Shown: in pieces, positions 13,389 through 64,000 of the stretch
How positions within the stretch are numbered: the stretch's first letter is position 1
How the letters are laid out: the number at the start of each line of letters is the position of its first letter
NCBI RefSeq assembly: GCF_036321535.1
Contig: NC_087436.1
Location: 8,928,001-8,992,000 of the forward strand
DNA length: 64,000 nucleotides
Source of the DNA: Camelus dromedarius
Taxonomy: Eukaryota
Direction of reading: 5' to 3'
Made by a program: the position numbers and the translations under genes
The notes under the pieces: generated by a model
What the model was told of the DNA's origin: nothing
The model's input: only the letters and a program-made list of their open reading frames with translations
Database searches by the model: none

Positions 13389-13853
13389 ATTTGTGTTTAA
13401 ATATTTTTTGCCAAGCTTGGTCAACTTAAGCTTTCAAGTAGGTAAATTCATGACTGCTTACTTTTTATTGGCTTGGTAATTTATAGGGAATGCAATATTT
13501 CATGGTTCTAAAGAAAGTCTGTAGCAAATTCACAAATCCCAAATCCCATAAAAGCATTAGCAGGTAAGGCTGAGAGTCATTTAACCTAAACTGATGTTGC
13601 ATGGTTTCAAGGGTATTGCCTAGTTATTTCAGCACAGATAAATTAAACTGCTCGTTCAGACCTCTGACCAAGAAGGGAAAAACTAACAACAGCACGACCA
13701 ACAACAAAAAAACTATTACTTTACCCACTATTACCAAGGTTGTCTCATCAAAATTCAGGTACATGTTTGATCAATTGTTATTTCCTCCATAAATCAGTGT
13801 TGTCTTCTATTTCTGAGCGGCATGTTATAGTTATTTAATTATCTATCTATTTA

Positions 13854-14828
13854 TTTTTAATATATTTTATTGAAGTATAGTCAGTTTACAATGTTGTGTC
13901 AATTTCTGGTGTACAGCACAATGCTTCAGTCCTACATATACATACATATATTCATTTTTGTATTCTTTTTCACATAAGTTACTAAAAGATATTGAATATA
14001 GTTCCCTGTGCTATGCAGCATAGAGTTGTTTATCTATTTTATATATATTAGCTAGTATTTGCAAATTTAGAACTCCTAGTTTATCCCTTCCCTCCCCCTT
14101 CCCCTCTGGTAACCATGTTTGTTTTCTATGTCTGTGAGTCTGTTTCTGTTCTGCAAATCAGTTTATTTGTCCTTGTTGTTTAGATTTCACATATAAGTGA
14201 TATTATGCGGTATTTTTCTTTCTCTTTCTGGCTTACTTCATTTAGAAAGACAATCTCCAGGTCCATCCATGTTGCTGCAAAGGGCATTATTTGATTCATT
14301 TTTATGGCTGAGTAGTATTCCCTTGTATAAGTGTACCACAACTTCTTTATCCAGGCATCTGTTGATGGACATTTAGGTTGTTTCCGTGTCTTGGCTATTG
14401 TAAACAGTGCTGCTGTGAACGTTGGGGTGCATGTATCTTTTTGAATTAAGTTTCCCTCTGGATATATGCCAGGAGTGGGATTGCTGGATCACAGGGTAAG
14501 TGTATTTTTAGTTTTCTGAGGAACCTTCATACTGTCCTCCATAATGGCTGCACCATACTACATTCCCACCAACAGTGTAGGAGGGTTCCCTTTCCTCCAC
14601 AGCCTCTCCAGCATTTACCATTTGTGGACTTTTGAATGACGGCCATTCTGTCTAGTGTGAGGTGATACCTCATTGTAGTTTTGATTTGCATTTCTCTGGT
14701 AGTTAGCAATATTGAGCATTTTTTCATGTGCCTATTGGCCACTTGTATGTCTTCATTGGAGAATTGCTTGTTTAGGTCTTCTGCTCATTTTTGGAATGGG
14801 TTGTTTGTTTTGTTCTTATTAAGTTGTC
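13854..14828 (-). mobile_element. 5'-truncated lineage-specific L1 with TSD
   Basis: ORF 14527-14742 is L1 ORF2-like ([10 protein letters not shown]...HCWWEC). 14-bp TSD tatctatctattta at 13840-13853 and 14829-14842. Confidence 0.93.
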
Positions 14829-21759: not shown

Positions 21760-22265
21760 TGTATTAGGAAAGAACAAATCTGACTCCCTATTAGATCTGT
21801 TCCTTTGGCTTTAACTCTGTTCTGTTTCCTAGGCTCGTTCTGCACCTTTTGTAAAAGAATGTTGCCTGGAGCCTGAAATAGACAGGAGAGCCTGTCCTCA
21901 AGGCTCTGACCTTAAGGGTGTAACACTTTCCCATTCACATAAAGATTAAAAGTTGCAGAATAGAAAATAACATTTGTCCTGTTAGAGGTTTACAGGGACA
22001 CCATGACCTGACCTACGTGGACAGCTGCAAGAACAAAGGATTCCAACACCAAGAAGTCTGCAACAACCAACCACACCCACTTCCCTTTTTAATATAAAAG
22101 AGGCCTGTATTCTGACTCGGGGAAGATGATTTTCCAAGACATTAGTCCCCCACTTCTTGATCTGCTGGCTTTTCAAATAAAGTCATTAGTCCTTGCCCCA
22201 GTATCTCGTCTCCCAATTTATTGGCCTGTCGTGATGTGAGCAGAGTGAGTTTGGACTTGGTAACA
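21760..22265 (+). mobile_element. ERV1-class solo LTR, copy 1 (possibly MER41-like)
   Basis: TG...CA termini, perfect 4-bp TSD ctaa, TATA (aatataaaag) and aataaa; homologous along its length to 32749-33246 and 42234-42770. Confidence 0.92.
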
Positions 22266-22629
22266 CTAACTTTAGAAAAATCAGATCTCTTCTTATATGC
22301 TCACGTAACTACAGGACCACCACTGATGTCCAAGTCACTGCAGTGTTTGAACAATTCCAACGAACGACTATTTTGGTCATTTCAGTGTGTCTGCCTGTGA
22401 ACAAAGAAACATGTGTTTCTTCCAAATGTGTTTCTGCAGACGCACATGCACACGCACTTGTTTGTGTGGTGCATATTTATACCACGTCTCATGTTGGGCA
22501 TGAAGTTCCTATGCGGCAGAAAATTATTTTCAAGAATGTGTTCATTGTTTAGTAATGCTCTCTTGGCCATATTAGTGATTGTCAAAAGTAAATCAAAGCC
22601 CAGGGAAATCAATCAGAATAGCATCTTAT

Positions 22630-32748: not shown

Positions 32749-33246
32749 TGTAATAGGGAAGAAGAAATCTTATTAGACCTGTTTATTTGGCTCAAACCTT
32801 GTGCTCTGTTTCCTGTGCTCAGTCATGCTGGTTCTGCACTTTTTGTAAAAGAATGTTGCCTAGAGCCTGACATAGATAGGACAGCCCATTCTCAAGGCTC
32901 CGACCTTTAAGGATATAACATGTTTCCATTCCTATAAAGAATTGCAGAATAGAAAACAACATTTGTCTTGTTGGAGGTTTATAGAGACACCATGACCTGA
33001 CCCACATGGACAGCTGCAAGAACAAAGAATTCCAACACCAAGAAGTTTGCAACAACCAACCACACTCCTTTTTTAGTATAAAAAGAGCCTGAATTCTGAC
33101 TTGGGGAAGATGGTTCTCCAGGACACGAGTCTGCCACTTTCTCAGTCTGCTGCCTTTCTGAGTCGTTTATTCCTTGCCCCAACACCTCATCTCCCTATTT
33201 ATTGGCCTATCATGTGGCGAGCAGAACAAGTTTGTACTCAGTAACA
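32749..33246 (+). mobile_element. ERV1-class solo LTR, copy 2
   Basis: tgtaatagggaag...ctcagtaaca; full-length homology to copy 1; degraded TSD gctc/gttt. Confidence 0.92.
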
Positions 33247-42233: not shown

Positions 42234-42770
42234 TGTAACAGAAAAGGACAAATCTGGCTGCATATGAGATCTGTTCCTTTGACTTCAACCCCGGGCTCTG
42301 TTCCCTAGGCTTAGTCTTGCTGGTTCTGCACCTTCTGTAAAAGAGTGGTGCCTATAGCCTGACATAGAGAGGAGAGCCCATCCTCAAGGCTCTGACCTCT
42401 AAGGATATTAACACTGTTCCATTACTATAGAGATAAACGTTGCGGAATAGAAAATAACGTTTGTCTTGTTGGAGATTTACAAGGACACCATGATCTAACC
42501 CATGTGGACAGCTGCAAGAACAAAGGATTCCAAGAACAAAGAATTCCCACACCAAGAAATTTGCAACAACCAAGCATCCCTCCCTCCCCTTTTTAGTATA
42601 AAGGGAGCCTGGATTCTGACTTGGGGAGGATGGTGCTCCAGGACATTAGTCTGCCACCTTCTTGGTCTGCTGGCTTTCCGAATAAAGTCGCTATTCCTTG
42701 CCCCAACACCTTGTCTCCAGATTTATTGGCCTGTCGTATGGCAAGCTGAACAAGTTTGTAGTTGGTAACA
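42234..42770 (+). mobile_element. ERV1-class solo LTR, copy 3
   Basis: tgtaacagaaaagg...ttggtaaca; TSD tgat/ttat; TATA and aataaa present; internal 16-bp tandem duplication. Confidence 0.92.
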
Positions 42771-43431
42771 TTATGACTATTAATAAGCAAATATTCTCTC
42801 CAGTATGAATAAATAAACAAGAAATAAACTTATAAATAAATAAGTGGCATTAAAGATGTTCAGTGATTTATTTATCTAGCATGTTAAAATAATTTGTCAA
42901 ATAACTAATTCAGCAGTAGTTTTCCATAAGAGTTCCCAATGATTTTGGGTACCATGAAAATAAATACCAGTAACTTTCAAATTTTAAATAATTGTCATCT
43001 CGGATTTACTAATTGGGTTTAGCATGAGTTTATCATAGTTATTTCTGTGCATATTTCCAGGTTGCATATAATTTGAATTGTGTGGGGCAAACTGAAGCCA
43101 TCGTTTTTAATCAGGAAGAAATGGGATGTTATCACAGCATGGCTTGGCATTCATTCTTCCCTCAATTTTACTCCAGGTGCATTTCACTGGGTGGATTTGG
43201 CCTGTGGACTGAATTGGCCACTTGGTGTCCCTAAGAAAAGCACCCTGATTGGGAAGCCATATGGTGCAATGCTGTAAGCTGTATCACACTGTGAGTCATA
43301 TTTTGGCCGGCTTTGTTCTCACAGCTCAGAATTGTATCTGTGTAAATTTCTACACACTCACTGCTTATAGGTGTCATTAGGCTCACATTTTCTTTCTCTT
43401 TTTAAACACTTGCCATAAAAAAGTGTTGCTA

Positions 43432-43851
<420 letters not shown>

Positions 43852-44220: not shown

Positions 44221-44849
44221 CAAATGTCACATTTCACATTCACAGCATTCCAATAAGAGAAAGGAAATGTCTGTATAGAAGGCAGGAAATAAGGGGGAAT
44301 AGCAATGAAAAACAGTGTCTTGAAAACTTCTTGTGGGGTTCGAACAGCAGATCCTTTCTTGTCTGACCTTTGCCACTTGGCAATCACAGATGCATTTCTT
44401 GAGCAAATGAACAAATCATGAAGAATCTGTCTTGTTATTCAGTCTAACAATCTCCACTGGCATCAGAAAAGTACAGGTGGATCAAATAGTCTTGTACTAA
44501 AATCAAACTAAGCGACTTCAGTCCTTTTGCTTTTATGGGTAAATTGGCTTTTCTTGTTTGAGAATGTTATCTAACTGAAAAGTAAAGAAGTCTATATATA
44601 AATTTCTCTCTCACCATATATATCTATTTGTGTGTGTATATATATATATTCAGGAATAATATGTACACATATATACATGCATATATATGTGTGCATACAT
44701 ATATTTACTGTCAGTGACAATTATATATTGCAAAAAAAAGAAACAACTTTTGAGTGGTTATAAACTTAAATTATAGTAATTTTATTGGATGCTTAGAGTA
44801 TATTTTCCGATGATTGGTTTAAAAGCCATCTCTCTACATGACTGCATCA

Positions 44850-48536: not shown

Positions 48537-51505
48537 ATGCCTTTAGCCAGACTTAATAATAAAAAAAGTATACCCACATAAACAAAATAAAAATGGAAGG
48601 TGATATATTACATCTGATCACAAAAATGCAATCATAAGAGAACATTATGAACAATGATATTCCAGAAATTGTACATCTGGAAGAAATGGATAAATTCTTA
48701 GAAACATATATGTCAAGACTGAATAAGAAGCAATAGATAATCTGAACAGACTGATTTCTAGTATTGAAATTGAGTCAGTGACCAATAAACTGCTGACAAA
48801 CCAAAATCCAGGATGAGATGTTTTCACAGGGGAATTCTACTTGACTTACTATGTTTCTTTCTCAAACTATTCCAAAAAATGAAGAGGTGAGAACACTCCA
48901 AATTCACTCTAGAGGTTACCATTACTTTGATACCAAAACCATACAAAGACACTAAAAATGAAAATTACAGGCCAATATCCCTGATGAATATAGATGCAAA
49001 AATCCTCAACAAACTGAATGCAACAATATATAAAAAGGATCATTCACCATGATCAAGTGGGATTTATTTCAAGGATGCAAGAATGGTTCAATATCTGCAA
49101 ATCAGTCAATGTGCTACACCACGTTAAGAAAACAAAGGATAAAAAGCATATAATCATCTTGATGCATGCAGAAAAGGCATTTGATCAAATTCAACACATA
49201 TTCATGATAAAAACTGTCAACAAAGTAGATGTTTAAGAAACATTACCTTAACATAATAAAGGCCATTATGACAAACCCACAGCTAGCATCATACTCAGTA
49301 GTGAAAACCTGAAAGCTTTTTCTCTAAAATCAGTAAAATCAGGAACAAGACAAAGATAGCCACTCTCATCATTTATATTTAACATAGTATTTGAAGTCCT
49401 AGTGACATAAATCAAATAAGAAAAAAGAATTACAAGGCGTTCAAATTGGAAGAGAAGATGTAAAACTATCACTATTTGGAAATGACGTAATACTATATAC
49501 AGAAAACTCTAAAGTCTCCACCAAAAAAACTAATGAATGAATCCAGTAAAGTTGCAAGATACAAGATTAAGAAACAAAAGTTGGCTTCTTTTCTATACAC
49601 TAAAAATGAAATATCAAAAAGAGAAAGCAAGAAAATAATCCCATTTACGATAGTATCAAAAAGAATAAACACATAGGAATAAACTTAATCAAGGAGGTGA
49701 AGTCTTATACTTTGAAACTATGAGACAATGAGGAAGGAAACTAAAGATGATGCAATGAAATGGAAAAATATCCTGTATTCATATATTGAAAAGAATAATA
49801 TTGTTGAAATGTCCATACTACGTAAAGCAATGTACAGTTTTAGCATAATCCTTATCAATCTATATACTCATGACATTTTTCACAGAAATAGAACAAATAA
49901 TCCTAAAATTTATATGGAAGCACAAAATACCCTGAATAGACAAAGCTATCGTGAGAAAAAAGAACAAAACTAAAGGGATCACGTTACCTGACTTCAGATA
50001 CTACAAAACTAAACTGATCAAAACAATATGATACTGGCACAAAAACAGACACATACATCAATGGCACAGAAGAGTGAGATTAGAAATAAGCTCACACACA
50101 TATGGCCAATTCATCTATGTTAAAGGAGGCAAAAATATACAATGGGGAAAAGATAGTTTCTTCAATAAGTGGTGTTGGAAAACTGGACAGTGTAGTGACA
50201 TGTAGAAGAATGAAATTAGAATGTTTTATCACACCTTATACAAAAAATAAACTCAAAGTAGATTAAAGACTTACATGTAAATCAAGAAACCATAAAACTC
50301 CTAGAAAAAATCATAGGCAGTACACTCTTCGACATACATATTAGCAATATTTTTTTATCTTTTTCCTTAAGCAAGGGAAACAAAAGCAAAAATAAACAAA
50401 TGGGACCAAATTACCCTTAAAAGCTTTTGCACAACGAGGAAAACTATCAGCAAAACAAAAGAGCCGCCTACTGAATGAGAGAAGATACTTGCAAATGATA
50501 TGTCTAGTAAGAGGGTAATATCCAGAATATATGAAGAGCTTATATAATTCAATATCAAAAAAACAAACAACCCAATTAAAAAATGGGCAAAAGATCTGAT
50601 AGATTTTCCCAAAGATGACATCCAGGTGGCCAACAGGCACATGAAAAGATGCTCAACATTACTAACCATCAGGGGAATGAAAATCAAGACCACAGAGAGA
50701 TATTACCTCACACTTATCAGAATGGTTATTGTCAAAAACACAATGCATAAAGTTGCGGGGATGTGAAGAAAAGGGAACCCGACCTAACTGTTAGTAGGAG
50801 TGTAAATTGGCATATCCCCTATGGAAAACAGTATGGAGGTTCTTCAAATAATTAAAAATAGAATTACCATATGATCCAGAAATTCCACTCCTGGGTATAT
50901 ACCCAGGAAAATTGAAAAAATAATTCCCCCCAAAAAATGCACCCTGATGTTTCTAGCAGCATTATTTACAATATCCAAGATATGGAAGCAAACCAAATGT
51001 CCATCGACAGATGAAAGGATAAAGAAGATGAGCATATACATACATATATATATATATATTATGGAATATTACTCAGCCATAAAAAATAATGAAATTTTGC
51101 TATTTGGAGCAACATGGATAGAACTGAAGGGTATTATGCTTAGTGAAATAAGTCAGATGGAGAAAGACACATGTTATATGCTTTCATTTATATTTGGAAT
51201 CTAAAAAAATAAAACAAAATAATGACTATAACAAAGCAGAAACAGACTCATAGATGCAGGGAACAAACTAGTAGTTATCAACAAGGGGACGAGGGGAATG
51301 GGTTGGGGGTAGGGGATTAAGACATACAACTACTAAGTATAATATAAACAAGATATGAGGATACAATGTACACAGAGAAAATATAGCCAATATTCTATAA
51401 TAACTTTAAATCTAGCATAATCTATAAAAATATCCAGTCACTATGTTGTACACCTGAAACTAATATGACATTGTAAATCAACCAAACTTCATATGAAGAA
51501 AAAAG
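45017..51505 (+). mobile_element. Near-full-length, inactive L1 (5' UTR, ORF1, ORF2, 3' UTR)
   Basis: Starts ...tcaagatgg with a GC-rich 5' UTR to about 46050 and an ORF1 remnant at about 46050-46950. ORF2 starts at ATG 47416 (MAISKYLEIITLNVNGLN..), has RT fragments (49018-49236, HHDQVGFI) and ends at 51204. Many stops and frameshifts. Confidence 0.95.
48481..48537. repeat. (TAAA)n microsatellite inside L1 ORF2
   Basis: Pure taaa run. Confidence 0.95.
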
Positions 51506-51513
51506 TCTTGGCA

Positions 51514-53470
51514 ATTCAGCAAGGTAGCAGGTTACAAGATTAACGTTCAAAAATCAGTTGCATTTCTGTATACTAATGATAAATCAACAGAAAAAGAAAG
51601 TAAAGAAACAGTCCCCTTTAAAATAGCACCCAAAGTAATAAAATATCTAGGAATAAATCTAACCAAGGAGGTGAAAGAATTTTACACAGAAAACTATAAA
51701 CCATTGATGAAGGAAATTAAAGTAGACTTTAAAAAATGGAAAGATATTCCATGCTCTTGGATTGGAAGAATCAATATTGTTAAAATGGTCACACTGCCCA
51801 AGGCAATCTACAGATTTAATGCAATCCCTATCAAATTACCCAGGACATATTTCACAGAACTAGAAAAAATCATAATAAAATTTATATGGAACCACAAAAG
51901 ACCTAGAATTGCCAAAGCATTACTGAAGAGAAAGAAAGAGGCTGGAGGAGTAACTCTCCCAGACTTCAGACAATACTGTAGAGCTACAGGCATCAAGACA
52001 GCATGGTATTGGTACAAAAACAGACATATAGACCAATGGAACAGAATAGAGAGCCCAGAAATGAACCCACAAACTTTTGGTCAACCCATCTTTGACAAAG
52101 GAGGCAAGAATATACATTGGAATAAAGACAGTCTCTTCAGCAGCAAATGGTGTTGGGAAAACTGGACAGCAGCATGTAAAACAATGAAGCTAGAACACTC
52201 CCTTACACCATAGACAAAAATCAACTCAAAATGGATTAAAGACTTAAACATAAGACAAGATACAATAAACCTCCTAGAGGAAAACATAGGCAAAACATTA
52301 TCTGACATACATTTAAAAAATTTTCTCCTAGAAGAAATAAAAGCAAGAATAAACAAATGGGACCTAATGAAACTTACAAGCTTCTGCACAGCAAAGGAAA
52401 CCGTAAGTAAAACAAAGCAACACCTACAGAATGGGAGAAAATTTTTGCAAATGAAACTGACAAAGGCTTGATCTCCAGAATATATAAGCAGCTCATATGA
52501 CATAATAAGAAACAAACAAACAACCCAATCCAAAAATGGGCAGAGGATCTAAACAAGCAATTCTCCAAGGAAGACATACAAATGATCAATAGGCACATGA
52601 AAAAATGCTCAATATCACTAATTATCAGAGAAATTCAAATCAAACCTACAACGAGGTATCACCTCACACCAGTCAGAATGGTCATCATTCAAATGTCCAC
52701 AAATGACAAATGCTAGACAGGCTGTAGAGAAAAGGGAACCCTCCTTCACTGCTGGTAGGAATGCAGTTTGGTGCAGCCACTGTGGAAAACAGTATGGAGA
52801 TTCCTAAGAAGACTAGGAATAGAATTACTGTATGACACAGGAATCCCACTCCTGGGCATATATCCAGAAGGAACTCTACTTCAGGATGACACCTGCGCCC
52901 CAATGTTCATAGCAGCATTATTTACAATAGCCAAGACATGGAAACAGCCTAAATGTCCATCAACAGATGACTGGATAAAGAAGCTGTGGTATATTTATAC
53001 AATGAAATACTACTCAGCCATAAAAACCGACAACATAATGCCATTTGCAGCAACATGGATGCTCCTGGAGAATGTCATTCTAAGTGAAGTAAGCCAGAAA
53101 GAGAAAGAAAAATACCATATGAGATCGCTTATATGTGGAATCTAAAACCAACCAACCAACAAACAAACAAACAAAGCATAAATACAAAACAGAAATAGAC
53201 TCACAGACATAGAATACAAACTTGTGGTTGCCAAGGGGGTGGGGGGGTGAGAAGAGAGAGACTGGGATTTCAAAATTGTAGAATAGATAAACAAGATTGT
53301 ACTGTATAGCACAGGGAAATATATACAAGATCTTGTGGTAGCTCACAGAGAAAAAAATGTGACAATGAATATATGTATGTTCATGTATAACTGAAAAATT
53401 GTGCTCTACACTGGAATTTGACACAACATTGTAAAATGATTATAAACCAATTAAAATGTTAAAAAAAAAA
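51514..53470 (+). mobile_element. Young 5'-truncated L1 with TSD
   Basis: Long ORF2 pieces (51671-52213, 52768-53145), poly-A, and perfect 15-bp TSD aaaaaagtcttggca at 51499-51513 and 53466-53480. Confidence 0.96.
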
Positions 53471-53954
53471 AGTCTTGGCATGTGTAAAACTCCATTTGTA
53501 TGTTAGTTATTGTTATTACTATTTTTAGAAACTAGTTTTCATAAGAACAGACATACACAAATAAAAATGTATTTCAATAATCAATTATATTTGTTTTTTT
53601 AAATAATACCTAAGAGGTATTTTTATGTTCATATAATTATGTGTATTTCCAAATAGAATTTAGAAAAATTAAAATGACAGGAAAAAGGACCAACACTATT
53701 AATAGTATAATTAAGAAAATAATTTATAATTTTTGATAGTAGTATAAATTGGAACAAATCTTCTAGAAAACAACTTAAAATTATTTGGTCTCTGACATCA
53801 TGATCTAATTGTTGAGAAAACATTCTATAACACTTAGAACAAAAAATAAGAAAAAGATTATTTATTGAACCAAGCTTTCCAATGCAGTATTATTTTAAAT
53901 AACTGATAATGACACTGAAATATTTAGTAGATTTTAAAAAATATATATTAATGC

Positions 53955-56715: not shown

Positions 56716-58889
56716 AAAGTATCATTTACTGTAGTTTTGGCACATACAATATATTGGCTCAAGATCATTGGAATAAAGAAAGAACAGCCCTATGACTAGT
56801 TTTTGTTACATATTTTGAAATATGTGTTTTCAAATAATGCACCTAAATTTCTCAAGAGTATCCGCTAGATAAGAATTTCCCTCACTTGCAAAAAAAGCAA
56901 GCAAGCAAGCAAGCTCATATTTATTTAATGGAATATTTTGATTTAAAAATAAGAATTTTGGTGACATTTTGCTCCCTATGTATTGTGAAACTGTTAAATT
57001 CTTTAAATCCAAAATACAATTTCCCATTGCATACTGTAAACTCTAACAAAACACACTCAGCCCTGGCAAACTTCATGGCTAGTTCAAGTAAATAACCCAA
57101 ACCTGAGAAGATTGAGCACAGTATGATCTTTTCAGGAGTTTTAATGACTAGGATGTGTATTTCCTGTGGCTAATTTGTAAAGGTGGTCAAAACAAGACTG
57201 CCTGACTGTAGGTCTGCCCGGTGGGCCACTGCTGAAACATTGTTTGAACGGTCCCATATCTGCAGTTCAGTGAATCTGGAACCTTTTTCTCCAACTTATT
57301 TCAGACAATCCATTGGACTTCTGCAGGCACCTTCATGAAATGCTGCAATCAAATTTATTTTAAAAGAAGTAAAGTTGCAAAAAGATAGGTATAAAAAAGC
57401 CTGGGGATTCAGTTAAATTGCATCTATCCAAATTTTAGTTTCTGTTTAGTGCAAATTAGTTTTTCCCAGTGCAGATGATTTTTGATCTGTCATTTCAAAG
57501 ATTACATGATCTGGGGTCACTAACCAATATGGCAACAATTACTCCTTATTTCCTGGTCTCAACTGCATTATGAGCATTCTAATTATGACAGCTGAACCCT
57601 GGAAGAGCTGAAGAAATACTCTCAAAATTCCAGCTTCCACTTGTGACCTTCAATAATAAAATTATTTTTCCATATCATTAATTTTATCCTTTCTAAGTCC
57701 CATCTAAGAACCAATATTTCTCTATTAGTATCTCAATATTGTAAACTGTGTTGTACACTGGAAACAAATGCAACATTGTAAAGCAACTGTACTTCAATAA
57801 AAAAATAAAATAAAATAAAAATTTTAAACTCTAGTCCCCTGAGAACTTAGAATACTTATAACTAATACTTTACCAGATAAAAACACTTTCATCATCTGTA
57901 TTATTTATGTAGATCGTACAAATGGATCAGAAGCCAAAGAAATCTCACTCTCACAGTTTCCACTAGTGCCTAAAAATGTCTTAACATTATAGATAGGTAG
58001 ACAGATAGATAGATAGACAAACAGATAAATCATAGGTGAATATATAGTTACTTAAGGCTTTCTTTTAGATATCCCTGATTATTAAAAGCAAAATGTCTGT
58101 TCTAAAATGTTTTAATTTAGTGAAGATTTTGAGTGATATTAAAAAGAAGAAAAGCATTTCTTTTGCTTAGTATTTGGGTGCCACTGTCCACTAAGGTGTT
58201 GATAGGTAGTGTAAAAAAGAAACTAAATTAATTAGCAGCCATTAAAGAAATGCTTTTTATTTTATGTAAGTCTATGCAATGAGAGTAAAGACATATGCTA
58301 AATCATCTGTGAGACTAAAAATACTTCAGGCTTTGGAATAAACCCAAAACTTTAAAACATCATGATTTCTTATTAAAGTTTAAAGCAGTATATGGATTTT
58401 TCTCACATAAAGTAGATATTTTCACACTGTGATGAAAAATATTAAATACCAAAATAAAAAGTTGAAAGTGAAGATTGATTATAAAAATCAAATTATATAA
58501 TTGATGATAACTGATCAAATTATAATTTGATTTTAATAAAAGGGTAGATATAACTAAGTAATCTTTAGGTTCTAATACTAACCATTAGAGTGAGACCAGT
58601 CATATTGCTAAGAGGGAACTGGGGGAAGACAGGAAGACATAGCTAATTCTGTCATAACTACAGGAATCAATGACTGCTAGAGAAATACTGCTTTTGGTGA
58701 ATTTAAAAGTTTTCATTTTAAAATTCACTTTCCTAAGTTATTTCAATATACTGAATGTATTTCAAAAAATCATTTTGCTTTAAATGAAAGAGGGTTTTAA
58801 TGACTTGATTTTATGTTTTTAATTAAGGAATAATTTTTGCAAGCATTTTTAGGTTCACAGCACAATTGAATGGAAAGTACAGAGAGTTT

Positions 58890-59185: not shown

Positions 59186-59852
59186 GGAAAAAACTTTTAA
59201 GGTCCAGAGATTTCCTAAGTATCTTCTTCTTCCAAAAACACAGCCTTCACCACCATCAAAAAATCTGAGCACCTACCATTTGCAAAAAAAAAAAAAAAAA
59301 AAAAAAGAGACCTTTACATATTTCCTAAGAATCAATTTATTACAACACCAGAAATTCTATACTTCTCTAAGTAAGTTATAAAACTTCCGTCTCAATCATT
59401 TTTTTCTCTTTTGACAGTTGAGGCCAGTGTTAGGGAGGGTTTACTGAAACAGCCAGGCACAGGACGTAAATACATGGACCTCAGGTTCAGAACCCACGGT
59501 TTATTACTGGTATAATTCTGGTTTCTGTTTTCTTGGTTGCTCAAGCTCTTTGAATATTAAAAAAAAAATTAGGACAAAAGGCACTGTCTCTACACTCCTC
59601 AACTCATTTCCTTCACCCTCCCATGTCTCTCCTTCACCATCTGTGATTTAAAACTATTTCATATCTGATTTGCCCAAAAACTTGACACATTCTCTGAATT
59701 CTCTTAATGCCCCCAGCTTAGGTGTTTGGAATAAAAGCAGGCTTTTTTCAGCTTTTGATGCCATTAACTTCCCTGAGGTCACAGATACAGATTCAGTCCA
59801 CTGCTTGAATTGGACAAAGGTCAAGGAGAAAATGTAGACTACAACCTGAGAA

Positions 59853-60092
59853 GTGGGAAGGGATGAATTTGGGGGTTTGAGATTTACAAATGTTAGCTAG
59901 TGTATATAAAAATAGATTTAAAAAAAAGTTTCTTCTGTATAGCACTGGGAACTATGATCAGTATCTTGTAATAATGTTTTAATGAAATAGAATATGAAAA
60001 CAAATATATGTATGTATATGCATGACTGGGACAATGTGCTGAACACCAGAAATTGACACATCGTAACTGACTATACTTTAATAAAAAAAAAT
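59853..60092 (+). mobile_element. L1 3' tail fragment
   Basis: ctgtatagcactgggaactat...ccagaaattgacaca..taactgactatactttaataaaaaaaa. Confidence 0.88.
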
Positions 60093-60726
60093 AAGTGGAA
60101 GAATATGACCTGAAATGTATTATGTCACCACCATAATGAAAAAATAGGTAACCCAGTCTAGTAGGGTTGTAGAAGGCATTCTAGAAGAGAAAAAAGCTGG
60201 CACTGTATAGGAATTGGTCATGTAGAGAAGACACTCATACAAGGAGATTTGGGGCAAAGTTGTGAACAGATGCATAAGGTGATTTAGTGTTGCCAAAGTA
60301 TGATTGGGATTCTTAAAAGATGCCAGTAATGAATTAGGGAAATGGTACTAGAAGTCCTGAAGGCTATGTTAAGGATATGTTACTGGGGCTATGCATGTTA
60401 GTACTTAATAGTTTTAAGAAGGAGTACATGTAGAGGATAGAAAAGAAACCACATGAGTTAGGAAGTTATCCACACCCCCCAGTCTAGTTGAAAATCATGT
60501 GGGTCAGACCAAGGAAAGAACTATAAAAAAAATTGATTTATGGAATAATATTGAATGAGTTGGAAAAGGAGGATGCAAAAAGGGTAGCTTTGAACATAAA
60601 GGAAGGAGCCAAGGCTATAAATAAAATTTTTGTGAAAAGTAATGTCAGCAGTTGAAGGGATTCATAACCAATATTCTTAATATTATTGGAATAATAATAA
60701 CAACACTAAGCACAAGAACAATAAAT

Positions 60727-61960
60727 AATTGGCTGTGGATAAGTGACACAGCTGAGAATGGAAACCAAATCTCTTTAATTACAGCAATCTGCAAAGTCAT
60801 GCTGTTTTTCATCAATACTCAATCATCTCACTTGGAAGAGTGGAGGGAAGATCATGGCACTGTTCAGAGCAACGGCCCTACTTGTCCTGTGTGGTGGAAG
60901 GATTTGAATGGAGGAGAAGATAAGTAACTCAGAAGAAAGTACTGCACACAGGGTACAAGGAACAGGGTACAAATACAGGAAACCAGGCAAAGTTACATAA
61001 ATGCTTGCCTGGCAAATCATTTTGTACTTTAATATCACTAACAGTCTAGGAATTAAGTCCAACATAGTCTTTGCTGAAGTGACCATCTATTGTGATGTGT
61101 CTCTAATATATATGAAAATAAGAAATTCTCTTTCCATTCCACCCCACTAACAAAGAACTTTTTTTAATGAGAGATTGCCAAGATCATAAATATTTTTTTC
61201 AAGATAACTATTTATTATCTCCTTTATATTCATAAGCTCTGATACTTCCCCGCCATTCTCATGGGCCTGAAAATTAAGCTTTATGCAGCAGAAATAAAAT
61301 TTAAGTATGTTAAAACTAATTATCCTAACAATAAATATAATTATCATATTAGATGTTTAATATATTAGCATTTAAAATCCCATTTTAATAGCATAAGCCC
61401 CACTGTGATCTCTAGGTCTTTGGTCTTAACTGATTTTTCTCTATCCTATAGCACAAATATTTTGGTTCTGCCCCATATCACTCTGTTTATTACTTTCTGA
61501 AAAAACAATTTGTATTTTAAACTTATTCTATATTTAGGACTTCTACATATTTGGAATCTTCTTTTTTCCACAAAATTAAGTCAGTATTTTTTGTGTATGT
61601 GTGTGTGTATATATGTATATGTGTATATACATATATGTATACACACACACATACACATACCATGTGTCTGTCTGTCTGTCTGCCTGTCTGCCTATCTATC
61701 TATCTATCTATATCTAAGAGATCCTGTGGCCCTGAAGCCTGAGATACAGAATGAGAGAAGCCCCTGGCAGCCTCCATTCAAATCCTTCCACCACACAGGA
61801 CAAGTAGGACCGTTGCTCTGAACAGCGCCATGATCTTACCTCTCCACTCTTCCAAGTGAGATGACTGAGTACTGATGAAAAATAGCATGACTTTGCAGAT
61901 TGGTATAATTAAAGATACTTGCATTCCATTCTCAACTGTGTCACTTATCCACAGCCAATT
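60727..61960. repeat. Local inverted duplication: arms 60727-60914 and 61771-61960
   Basis: By manual alignment about 12 substitutions and 2 single-base indels over about 190 bp (about 93% identity); spacer 856 bp. Confidence 0.97.
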
Positions 61961-62528
61961 TTATAGATAGATAGATAGATAGGCACATATTTTATTGAAG
62001 TATAGTCAGTTTACAATGTTGTGTCAATTTCTGGTGTGAAATTAATATTTAAATTAATTGCTTAACCAGAAGTTTTTAAATTGTTTTTAAAAATTATTTT
62101 ATTAATTTTTTTTAGCTAATTGCATTGTTCTCTTAGCCTTCTGAATATTTTGGTTGTGGTGTCCTTCCCATCACTGGCTTTTGGTTTTTTCAAACCATTG
62201 ATAAACTCTGTACAAGTTAGTACAACAAAACAGACCAGGACACTACGATACATAAAGAAATATGGTTTTAAATACTTTTTTTTTAAATGTTTTAATTTAC
62301 ATATGATAATCTTCTGCATATACACTGTTAGATCATGTATAATTTGCTTAGATAATAATATTGTTTATCTGTTTCACGTCATTGGCAGACAGGTATGGCA
62401 GGCTTGTTGTAAAAGTTAGTTTGTGATCTGGCTCCTCAGTCTCCCTACTCTGCCAACATATCTGGCACCAAGGCTCTTTTCCAGGGCCTTCTCTCATTCT
62501 GTATCTCAGGCTTCAGGGCCTCAGGATC
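61720..62528. repeat. Second inverted duplication: arms 61720-61767 and 62481-62528
   Basis: gatcctgtggccctgaagcctgagatacagaatgagagaagcccctgg versus the reverse complement of 62481-62528: 46/48 identical. Confidence 0.95.
61988..62038 (-). mobile_element. Approximately 50-bp L1 3' terminus
   Basis: ttttattgaagtatagtcagtttacaatgttgtgtcaatttctggtgt is identical to the L1 end at about 13865-13912. Confidence 0.85.
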
Positions 62529-63329
62529 CCACTGGACTGATAGTTTATGGTGTTTGCAACTCGGTGATGATCCATGTTTCCTCCCCTTGCCCATCTTCTC
62601 CTTTTTTGGTGTAGAGGCTAAATTATAGAACACTTTACATAAACGTAATGCCCTTAGCATACTGTACGCTAAGATACATGCCATGTGCGTAGGCTCACAG
62701 GGCACTATATTTTAGTAGGGATGGGATACAATTAAAACAAATACTTTGTAAGGTACAAAAAAAAAAAAACCTTGTCACATGGGAGATACAAAGCGATATG
62801 ATGTTTGGAGGTGGAAGACATTTATTTTGAAGGAAAAAAATAAAAGCTTCCTAATAAAAGTCAGATTTGATCAGGGATTTTTTTTTTAATGGTTAGTCTT
62901 TTGACAGGTGGAAATGTGTTGGAAACAGAAGAGCAAAGGGAGACAAAAGAGCAGTATTCTGTGTTTCACAAAACTTGACCCTGCTATCAGTTTTACATCG
63001 TCCTTACCAGTGGTTTCAGAGTCATCATTTCCTAAGTGGGTGAGCCCACCATGTTTATTGTCCCAGTTAAGGCCATCTAGCAAAATCTCCTGTATCTCTT
63101 CCTAAACTGTTTGTTTCTAAATAATTGCTTATCGTATACTTTCAAAAATTACACATAAAAAAGAACAATATAGCTCTATGTATTTAGTTCTCTGAGTGAG
63201 AGTTCTCAAGTAGAAACGAATAAGAAAACATCTCCAAACCAAGTCCCCTTTCTAATGACTACAGTTTATGTACACTGCCTAAAATGTTTCCTGAAGCATT
63301 CTTCCTCCTCTGATCTTTTAGCCAATCAT

Positions 63330-63470
63330 ATGAAGTAAGTGCTCTTTGTTTCCCGTTTTACAAATAAGGAAGGAATTCGCTCAGAATGGCTACTTAGCAT
63401 GTCCTAAGTCACAAAGTTGTGAGTGATGACACCAAGTTTCAAACTCAAGTCTATTTGAACACTTAGCAAT
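63330..63470 (-). mobile_element. MIR SINE
   Basis: cccgttttacaaataaggaa..gctcagaa..tcctaagtcaca. Confidence 0.65.
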
Positions 63471-63789
63471 TATGTGATTCTGCCTGGATGCCATTTCTAT
63501 TGATTTGTGTGATTCTTGTGGAACATACAGGAGATATGCATTGTAGGCATTTGGAAATGAAAACTTGATCTTAGTAGAAAGCCCAGGAATCTAAGTTTTA
63601 CAGTCACCTATATAAAATGATAGATGAAGATATGACTGAATGTTTTGTAAAAAAAAAAAAAAAAAGTAAATAAAAGTATACGTAGAAAGGAGAGTTGGAA
63701 ATACAGCAACTTGGACCTCAGAAGTTTTCCAAGAGGACCAGAAGTATCTTTCCCCTCAGTCATTAAAAAACTGGTAACTTAAAATCCAA

Positions 63790-63970
63790 CAGTAACTTGT
63801 TCTGTAACCTTGGCAATTTCCTTGGTTTATTTTTGCTTTCATTTTCTCACGAGTAAAATGGAGATGGTAATGGAACTGATCTTGTGAGTTACTGTGAATT
63901 AAAGGATATAAATCCTGTAAACTAGTACCTGTCAGATAATGGGCACAACTTTCATGCCAACTGTTACTAA
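63790..63970 (+). mobile_element. MIR SINE
   Basis: tgtaaccttggcaatt..tttcattttctcacgagtaaaatggagat..tgtgaattaaagga. Confidence 0.65.
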
Positions 63971-64000
63971 CATCAGTATTATCCCTGCTGATGTTGTTGT

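Follow-up and report, generated by a model that had tools for sequence, protein, structure and literature searches.

A locally templated, multi-donor inverted insertion adjoining an L1 3' end in an FSTL5 intron of the dromedary

Among the described systems, those closest to the locus treated here are complex germline MMB-TI events of the FoSTeS/MMBIR type (Osia et al. 2021, PMC8421209) and local n-jumps (Li et al. 2020, PMC7025897), in both of which several nearby templates give rise to inverted copies. Two people carried 33 and 26 complex germline MMB-TI events with up to five templates, and 80% of MMB-TI junctions display microhomology of 2-12 bp (PMC8421209). A second class is constituted by L1 insertions with templated inserts, in which a single stretch of copied local DNA of less than 250 bp accompanies a 5'-truncated L1 end (bioRxiv 10.1101/2024.08.27.596794; PMC11702581). 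Such templated genomic inserts were found at L1 insertions in cells (PMC11702581), and in tumours 22 of them were counted among 3,611 solo-L1s (bioRxiv 10.1101/2024.08.27.596794). In addition, Pol theta generates fold-back inserts from inverted local templates, with TMEJ templates that are typically shorter than 10 bp and situated within 20 bp of the break (PMC11541566), and it may moreover cooperate with Pol delta in MMBIR (PMC13065848). On an evolutionary scale, short-range template switches in great apes produced inverted local copies and thereby hairpins, in single switches with a median of 12 nt and a maximum of 128 nt (Walker et al. 2021, PMC7954356).

The present locus comprises an inverted block (61720-61960) and its flanking arms within the window, i.e. 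the whole analysed stretch of 64,000 nucleotides from Camelus dromedarius. With MMB-TI and n-jumps it has in common the several nearby templates, the inverted copies, the retained donors, the return to the original locus and the tolerance in the germline (PMC8421209, PMC7025897). On the other hand, its donors lie 0.5-1 kb off, whereas MMBSearch looks within 100 bp, which is an operational and not a mechanistic limit of that description. Unlike those events, moreover, the FSTL5 scar has weak microhomology, is millions of years old and is apparently nested in the tail of an L1. The likeness to L1 insertions with templated inserts extends to the 5'-truncated L1 end, the copied local DNA of less than 250 bp, a candidate TSD and an endonuclease-like site; yet the dromedary locus contains three or four pieces instead of one, carries them on the 3' (tail) side and obtained them from hundreds of bases away, compared with typically no more than 15 bp in the inserts so described. 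Pol theta inserts share with it the inverted local templates and the short linkers, and the 20-27 nt junction pieces fit them loosely, but A' (48 nt) and B' (190 nt), copied from 0.5-1 kb, lie far outside the range given (PMC11541566). Hence, of the two mechanisms put forward in a first-pass annotation of this DNA, FoSTeS/MMBIR-type switching fits the locus, while Pol theta is not supported as the maker of the long pieces. The great-ape switches are likewise evolutionary-scale inverted local copies that create hairpins, though as reported they are single-switch and short, in contrast to the multi-donor arrangement with a 190-nt piece found here (PMC7954356). Among the literature matches listed, in which subscription journals are thinly covered, none dealt with this locus or with inserts from several donors inside L1 tails.

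Architecture of the inverted block

The block is almost certainly a real local templated insertion (Table 1). Its first part, A', is identical to donor A, 713 nt away, at 46 of 48 positions, just as the first-pass annotation had it, and its second part, B', corresponds to donor B, 856 nt away, with 92.1% identity over 190 columns (E 2e-73), close to the 93% claimed before. When extended by 4 nt, the B/B' alignment holds 180 matches, 12 mismatches (8 transitions and 4 transversions) and 3 gaps. The CAG joint between both parts, which had also been recognised from the outset, is present and matches neither donor's continuation, and a further linker of 7 nt precedes A'. The best inverted self-match in 59-64 kb scores 273 bits, compared with a maximum of 45.5 and a mean of 29.8 bits in 100 Markov-1 shuffles; the A arm by itself reaches 78.8 bits. 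The earlier proposal of a multi-donor local templated insertion is supported.

The low-complexity pair C/C' had been described as a perfect 24-bp inverted pair bracketing the block. Its exactness was confirmed (24/24), while the role of a bracket was not, as the pair is better read as a third copied piece. By eye it reaches slightly further, to ~61662 and ~61989, once the six additional tetramer units of the left side are bridged. Despite its low complexity the pair is probably more than chance, because only three arrays of at least four TATC/GATA units occur in 64 kb, two of them being C and C', and the GCC-flanked form of this repeat is restricted to C and C' in the same 64 kb.

All copied pieces are inverted (3/3, or 4/4 when the fold-back described below is counted) and have their sources less than 1 kb away, at admittedly small numbers. 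Both donors remain in place beside the insert copies, and no third copy of donor A or donor B exists within the 64-kb window. The idea that the arms are a dispersed repeat, or the block an assembly artefact, is hardly credible: the donors are uncopied elsewhere in the 64 kb and each arm has its best match less than 1 kb away, a 3-nt linker unites two unrelated donors, and a transition-biased divergence of 5% is unlike a read chimera. The earlier judgement that the block is old and no artefact is thus supported by dispersed, transition-biased differences together with indels. Exact-pattern scans yielded no match for arm B in metagenome contigs, for arm A in viral contigs or for the multi-copy L1 3' end in metagenome and prokaryote contigs; since even the multi-copy L1 end was absent from the scanned contigs, these negatives carry no weight on repeat status.

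Half of the mismatches in B' (6/12) are clustered within the 21 nt of 61903-61923 (p 0.02, for a window picked post hoc), which may reflect error-prone synthesis or a further micro-switch. Neither for this cluster nor for the 7-nt linker was a convincing template found in the window, the best matches of 9-12 nt being far off and taken as chance.

To the left of arm C lies a (TG)n(TA)n(CA)n fold-back, which the first-pass annotation had missed. Its arms (61592-61611 and 61638-61657) are exact over 20 bp (20/20), its hairpin has a predicted folding energy of -27.1 kcal/mol (z -7.1), and it represents the sole exact TG...CA fold-back of at least 16 bp within 2 kb, window-wide. A search of 59500-64000 against Rfam at E up to 1 gave 29 matches, none of them at gathering score; 26 of the 29 fell on this hairpin, with mir-297, mir-466 and similar low-complexity models, and were rejected as compositional. 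Further imperfect AT/TG-rich palindromes are located at 44625-44710 and 58479-58539.

Table 1. Coordinates of the features at and around the inverted block (positions within the window)
Feature	Position	Strand	Remark
Reference L1	13840..14842	-	ORF2 C-terminus, 3' end, exact 14-bp TSD at 13840 and 14829
FSTL5 Kazal-domain exon (aa 54-137)	43507..43758	-	block 18 kb upstream, in preceding intron
Donor B	60722..60914 (core 60727-60914)	+	self-comparison
Candidate left TSD	61573..61589	+	moderate, scoring-dependent
T6 run, candidate poly(A) remnant of minus-strand L1	61587..61592	-	sibling L1 copies end in A5-A7
(TG)n(TA)n(CA)n fold-back	61592..61657	.	possible fourth copied piece or stalling structure
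Compound TGTC/TATC repeat with arm C (61689-61712)	61662..61712	+	six tetramer units different from right arm
7-nt linker	61713..61719	+	best window matches 9 nt, distant
A'	61720..61767	-	inverted copy of 62481-62528
CAG linker	61768..61770	+	
B'	61771..61960	-	inverted copy of 60727-60914
C', inverted partner of arm C	61962..61989	-	exact 61962-61985; either copy or original L1 tail
L1 3' end with AATAAA, 51 nt	61987..62037	-	51/51 match to 13862-13912
Candidate right TSD	62039..62050	+	ends at TTT/AA endonuclease-like site
Donor A	62481..62528	+	self-comparison

The adjoining L1 end and the extent of its tail

The block is adjoined on its right by the 3' end of an L1, another feature overlooked at first. 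This 51-nt piece is 5'-truncated, carries the poly(A) signal AATAAA and runs in FSTL5 sense; it is identical throughout to the corresponding part of the reference L1, while the seven other L1 ends compared show 3-13 differences from it. The proposal that the event began in a microsatellite is supported as to location; the abutting L1 3' end, which had been omitted, changes the context and opens an L1-driven rival.

The reference L1 is itself 5'-truncated, its ORF2 C-terminus matches residues 1175-1272 of human ORF2p in a PDB search, and it has decayed by about 7% at ORF2 codon positions 1+2 (10/137). DNA copying of the L1 piece from 13862-13912, 48 kb off, was considered, but the 51/51 identity does not discriminate, because the decay of the 13.8-kb copy makes such identity a few-percent event under every model. 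Pfam returned no families for three L1 ORF2 fragments, two of which were then identified upon submission to the PDB search. A short L1 3' fragment at 59855-60094 (+) yields 18- and 22-bp inverted matches to 61990-62037 and was rejected as donor of this stretch, being of a different copy type. Elsewhere in the window, two adjacent tandem L1 3' regions (49540-53472) are 71% alike over 1.77 kb and include an open ORF2 stretch of 238 aa (51497-52213).

Judged from the sequence, the block probably lies within the tail of this L1, and the left microsatellite would then be the far end of that tail. In the sibling L1 ends at 13.8, 28 and 31 kb, AATAAAA is followed by a short A/C/T spacer and then by A5-A7. 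No A-run directly follows the L1 end at the block, which continues into C'; a T6 run, the candidate poly(A) remnant, is situated 395 nt to the left of the L1 end, across the block. This run adjoins TG/TA sequence that in L1 sense resembles the sibling spacers, with a CATATACA-like end as in the 28- and 31-kb tails. Moreover, the two candidate TSD copies agree at 12/12 positions with a 5-nt gap, the right copy starting one base from the L1 5' end. Across eight scoring settings, 1, 1, 22, 15, 8, 7, 39 and 21 of 505 other T-runs scored equally, as did 1 of 3000 random right flanks in a lenient setting, and the support for the candidate drops under stricter gap costs. For L1 the endonuclease-like site has the consensus TTT/AA. 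The right TSD copy ends at precisely such a site (62050/62051, within 62048-62052), a common motif that occurs in 512 of 3000 random flanks. Taken together, these features would assign to the L1 an extent of 61590-62038.

The first-pass annotation had placed the scar in a microsatellite, and in a rival reading along this line the microsatellite is an ordinary intronic one to which the L1 fragment is unrelated. Either the L1 would have landed later at the A/T-rich right edge, with 7 extra bases beside a 6-nt TSD (61987-61992 and 62045-62050), or chance would account for the match of the left TSD. Several observations agree with this, namely the absence of differences between the L1 piece and its sibling (0/51) against 5% in the arms, the AT-rich flanks, the scoring-dependence of the long TSD (up to 39 of 505 T-runs) and the local repetition of 62039-62046 at 62051-62058. 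However, 61987-61992 belongs to the 13.8-kb copy's own tail, inside its TSD, so that the later landing leaves the L1 tailless, and the left T6 run with its TG/TA start resembles the tails of the siblings. An unrelated L1 is regarded as distinctly unlikely.

Age and formation of the chain

The A, B and C arms differ from their partners at 14 of 262 sites (5.3%, 95% interval 3.0-8.8%) and do so homogeneously (p 0.40); with the fold-back included, 16 of 289 sites differ (5.5%, p 0.59). This homogeneous divergence is compatible with one event. A mutation rate of 2.5e-8 per generation and five years per generation (PMC8605555) lead to an age of about 5 My (3-9), while lower rates, assumed at 2.5e-9 and 1.5e-9 per year, lead to 11 My (6-18) and 18 My (10-29), respectively. 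Given these estimates and more than 11 My of independent evolution among camelids (PMC13751797), the empty site could be present in the other tribe or absent from it. The L1 piece, with 0/51 differences from its sibling, and the arms, with ~5%, are compatible with one age (p 0.24), although the lack of divergence in the L1 piece suggests that it predates the block by little, or is even younger. Of the 8 transitions in B, 7 read as A>G or C>T when taken on the strand of the gene (p 0.07). Transition asymmetry is a property of transcribed introns, and the skew is weakly compatible with ageing in such an intron.

The best explanation, to which about an even chance is given, is a FoSTeS/MMBIR-type chain formed by one nascent strand in the tail of an earlier-inserted, 5'-truncated L1. 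It is built on the observed inverted copies, their order, linkers, common orientation, distances and divergence, the L1 3' end and the hairpin. A 5'-truncated L1, consisting of 51 nt and a low-complexity tail, would first have inserted by ordinary target-primed reverse transcription. Later, DNA synthesis in the germline would have stalled or broken in the hairpin-prone tail microsatellite, whereupon a single nascent 3' end would have switched three or four times to the opposite strand within 1 kb, its targets being the tail itself and stretches about 0.5 kb rightward and 0.7-1.0 kb leftward. Each switch would have copied 24-190 nt, in some cases with 3-7 untemplated bases picked up, before the end rejoined the tail. 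The donors being kept in place, the outcome would be a copy gain of 270-330 bp, followed by neutral decay. The hairpin would represent either the stalling structure or the first switch. We infer that the L1 came first, that all pieces stem from one event and that the substrate was a replication fork, not a retrotransposition intermediate.

The insert can be delimited in either of two ways. If C' is original tail, the insert covers 61630-61961 (332 bp) and consists of the fold-back, C, A' and B'; if C is original, it covers 61713-61986 (274 bp) and consists of A', B' and C'. In both reconstructions every piece is inverted; measured from the inferred break, A is located 495-567 nt rightward and B 715-990 nt leftward, and C and the fold-back lie within 100 nt of it. 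The donors are attached crosswise: the copy next to the left flank comes from the right, and the copy on the side of the right flank from the left. Fold-back at each of two broken ends would be expected to produce the reverse order, whereas one strand hopping along the opposite parental strand at a stalled fork would explain the order, the orientation and a range of 1 kb. An inversion at a staggered break, with duplication of its ends, was rejected, as donor A should then directly follow C' but lies ~495 nt beyond.

The shared orientation of the three or four pieces has a chance expectation of 1 in 8 to 1 in 16 and is partly how the finding was noticed; conservative MMBIR synthesis predicts addition to one strand (PMC12807874). 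Weak microhomology counts against the serial-switching chain, as it falls short of the textbook MMBIR signature: the A'/B' joint has none, to the left of A' none is visible, and at B'/C' 3 nt appear only once a 2-nt gap is passed. Two of the switches carry untemplated bases.

Untemplated linkers, piece size and local origin are equally found in chains of breakage-replication/fusion, in which single-stranded fragments freed near a post-replication break would be end-joined. In such chains the median piece measures 184 bp, the pieces originate less than 10 kb from DNA ends, and their junctions show microhomology or non-templated bases (PMC12807874). Yet according to the same source the two strands are joined with similar frequency (38 vs 41 pairs) and the chains are flanked by large duplications (PMC12807874), whereas no mixed-strand joining is seen here, no large flanking duplication appears in the 64-kb window, and the pieces share one orientation, a weak argument at n=3-4. 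Ligation of fragments is hence very improbable.

The L1-driven rival deserves greater weight, although it is still judged unlikely. It assumes a single event during L1 integration, in which ORF2p, or host repair at the ORF2p break, would start on the poly(A) and leave the L1 RNA, jump several times to nearby DNA or to nascent FSTL5 RNA, add untemplated bases, fold back on its own product and finally return to the L1 RNA for copying of the last 51 nt. The nascent FSTL5 RNA would have the right polarity as a template if the lower strand was extended. The chain is indeed bounded by the candidate poly(A) remnant on one side and by the L1 body on the other, with the candidate TSD enclosing it, and the L1 piece and the arms may be of one age, as stated above. 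Purified ORF2p shows about equal activity in copying DNA and RNA, can add non-templated bases and performs template jumps (PMC10830420), properties that suit the 3- and 7-nt linkers and the poor microhomology. On the contrary, L1-templated inserts as described typically originate within 15 bp of the site and not from 0.5-1 kb (bioRxiv 10.1101/2024.08.27.596794); furthermore, the enzyme must quit the RNA inside the tail and then resume almost exactly at its exit point, and the RNA would need a long compound microsatellite tail. It is rather unlikely that the scar is a germline-fixed trace of an L1 reverse transcriptase which left its RNA in the 3' tail, copied three to four stretches at most 1 kb away and returned. 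If true, such a trace would represent a 3'-side, long-range, multi-donor class of L1-templated insertion, unmatched by the published descriptions compared.

Gene context and biological meaning

The sole coding exon found in the window encodes a Kazal domain and is identical to dromedary FSTL5 at 84/84 aa, the best of 148 proteins compared (next best 96%), in support of the earlier assignment of the block to a camelid FSTL5 intron. Among the 120 proteins listed, the matches were without exception FSTL5 or hypothetical entries, and Kazal clusters provided the sole names in the ESM Atlas. The 64-kb window contains no further FSTL5 exons, has 35% GC and is rich in L1 fragments. An element of ~500 bp occurs in it three times in the same orientation (21760-22268, 32749-33246 and 42234-42773; 78-79% identity), possibly as solo LTRs. 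The stretch 60150-60670, just left of donor B, is presumably an old L2 fragment, and 63340-63480 and 63760-63950 are taken by us to be MIR-like fragments in opposite orientations.

In FSTL5 pre-mRNA, B and B' are predicted to form a duplex of ~190 bp (92% paired identity, -333 kcal/mol), which might possibly serve as an ADAR substrate. Read on the minus strand, B' contains, where it differs from donor B, a splice-donor-like sequence at 61839 together with an acceptor-like one at 61865 (within 61839-61872). These cryptic splice signals were dismissed as ordinary, given that a similar acceptor is present upstream of 11 of the 31 donor-like sites in the window. AATAAA occurs 86 times in the window. 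The intronic scar shows no sign of function and has apparently decayed neutrally.

In summary, the scar is a fresh example of a known copying-error class with no evidence of function, and as a single locus, intronic and apparently neutral, it matters little. Human diversity amounts to 0.1%. If the human counts are scaled to a divergence of several percent, one would arrive, as a rough estimate, at hundreds to a thousand scars of this kind in each mammalian genome, so that meeting one in a scan is expected. Nevertheless, the locus provides a clean natural case of kilobase-range serial template switching that was tolerated and kept in the mammalian germline. It also raises the general question of whether such chains are enriched in L1 tails, and whether they are formed with the insertion or after it. 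If they are formed with the insertion, the enzyme of L1 would write local multi-donor duplications during integration.
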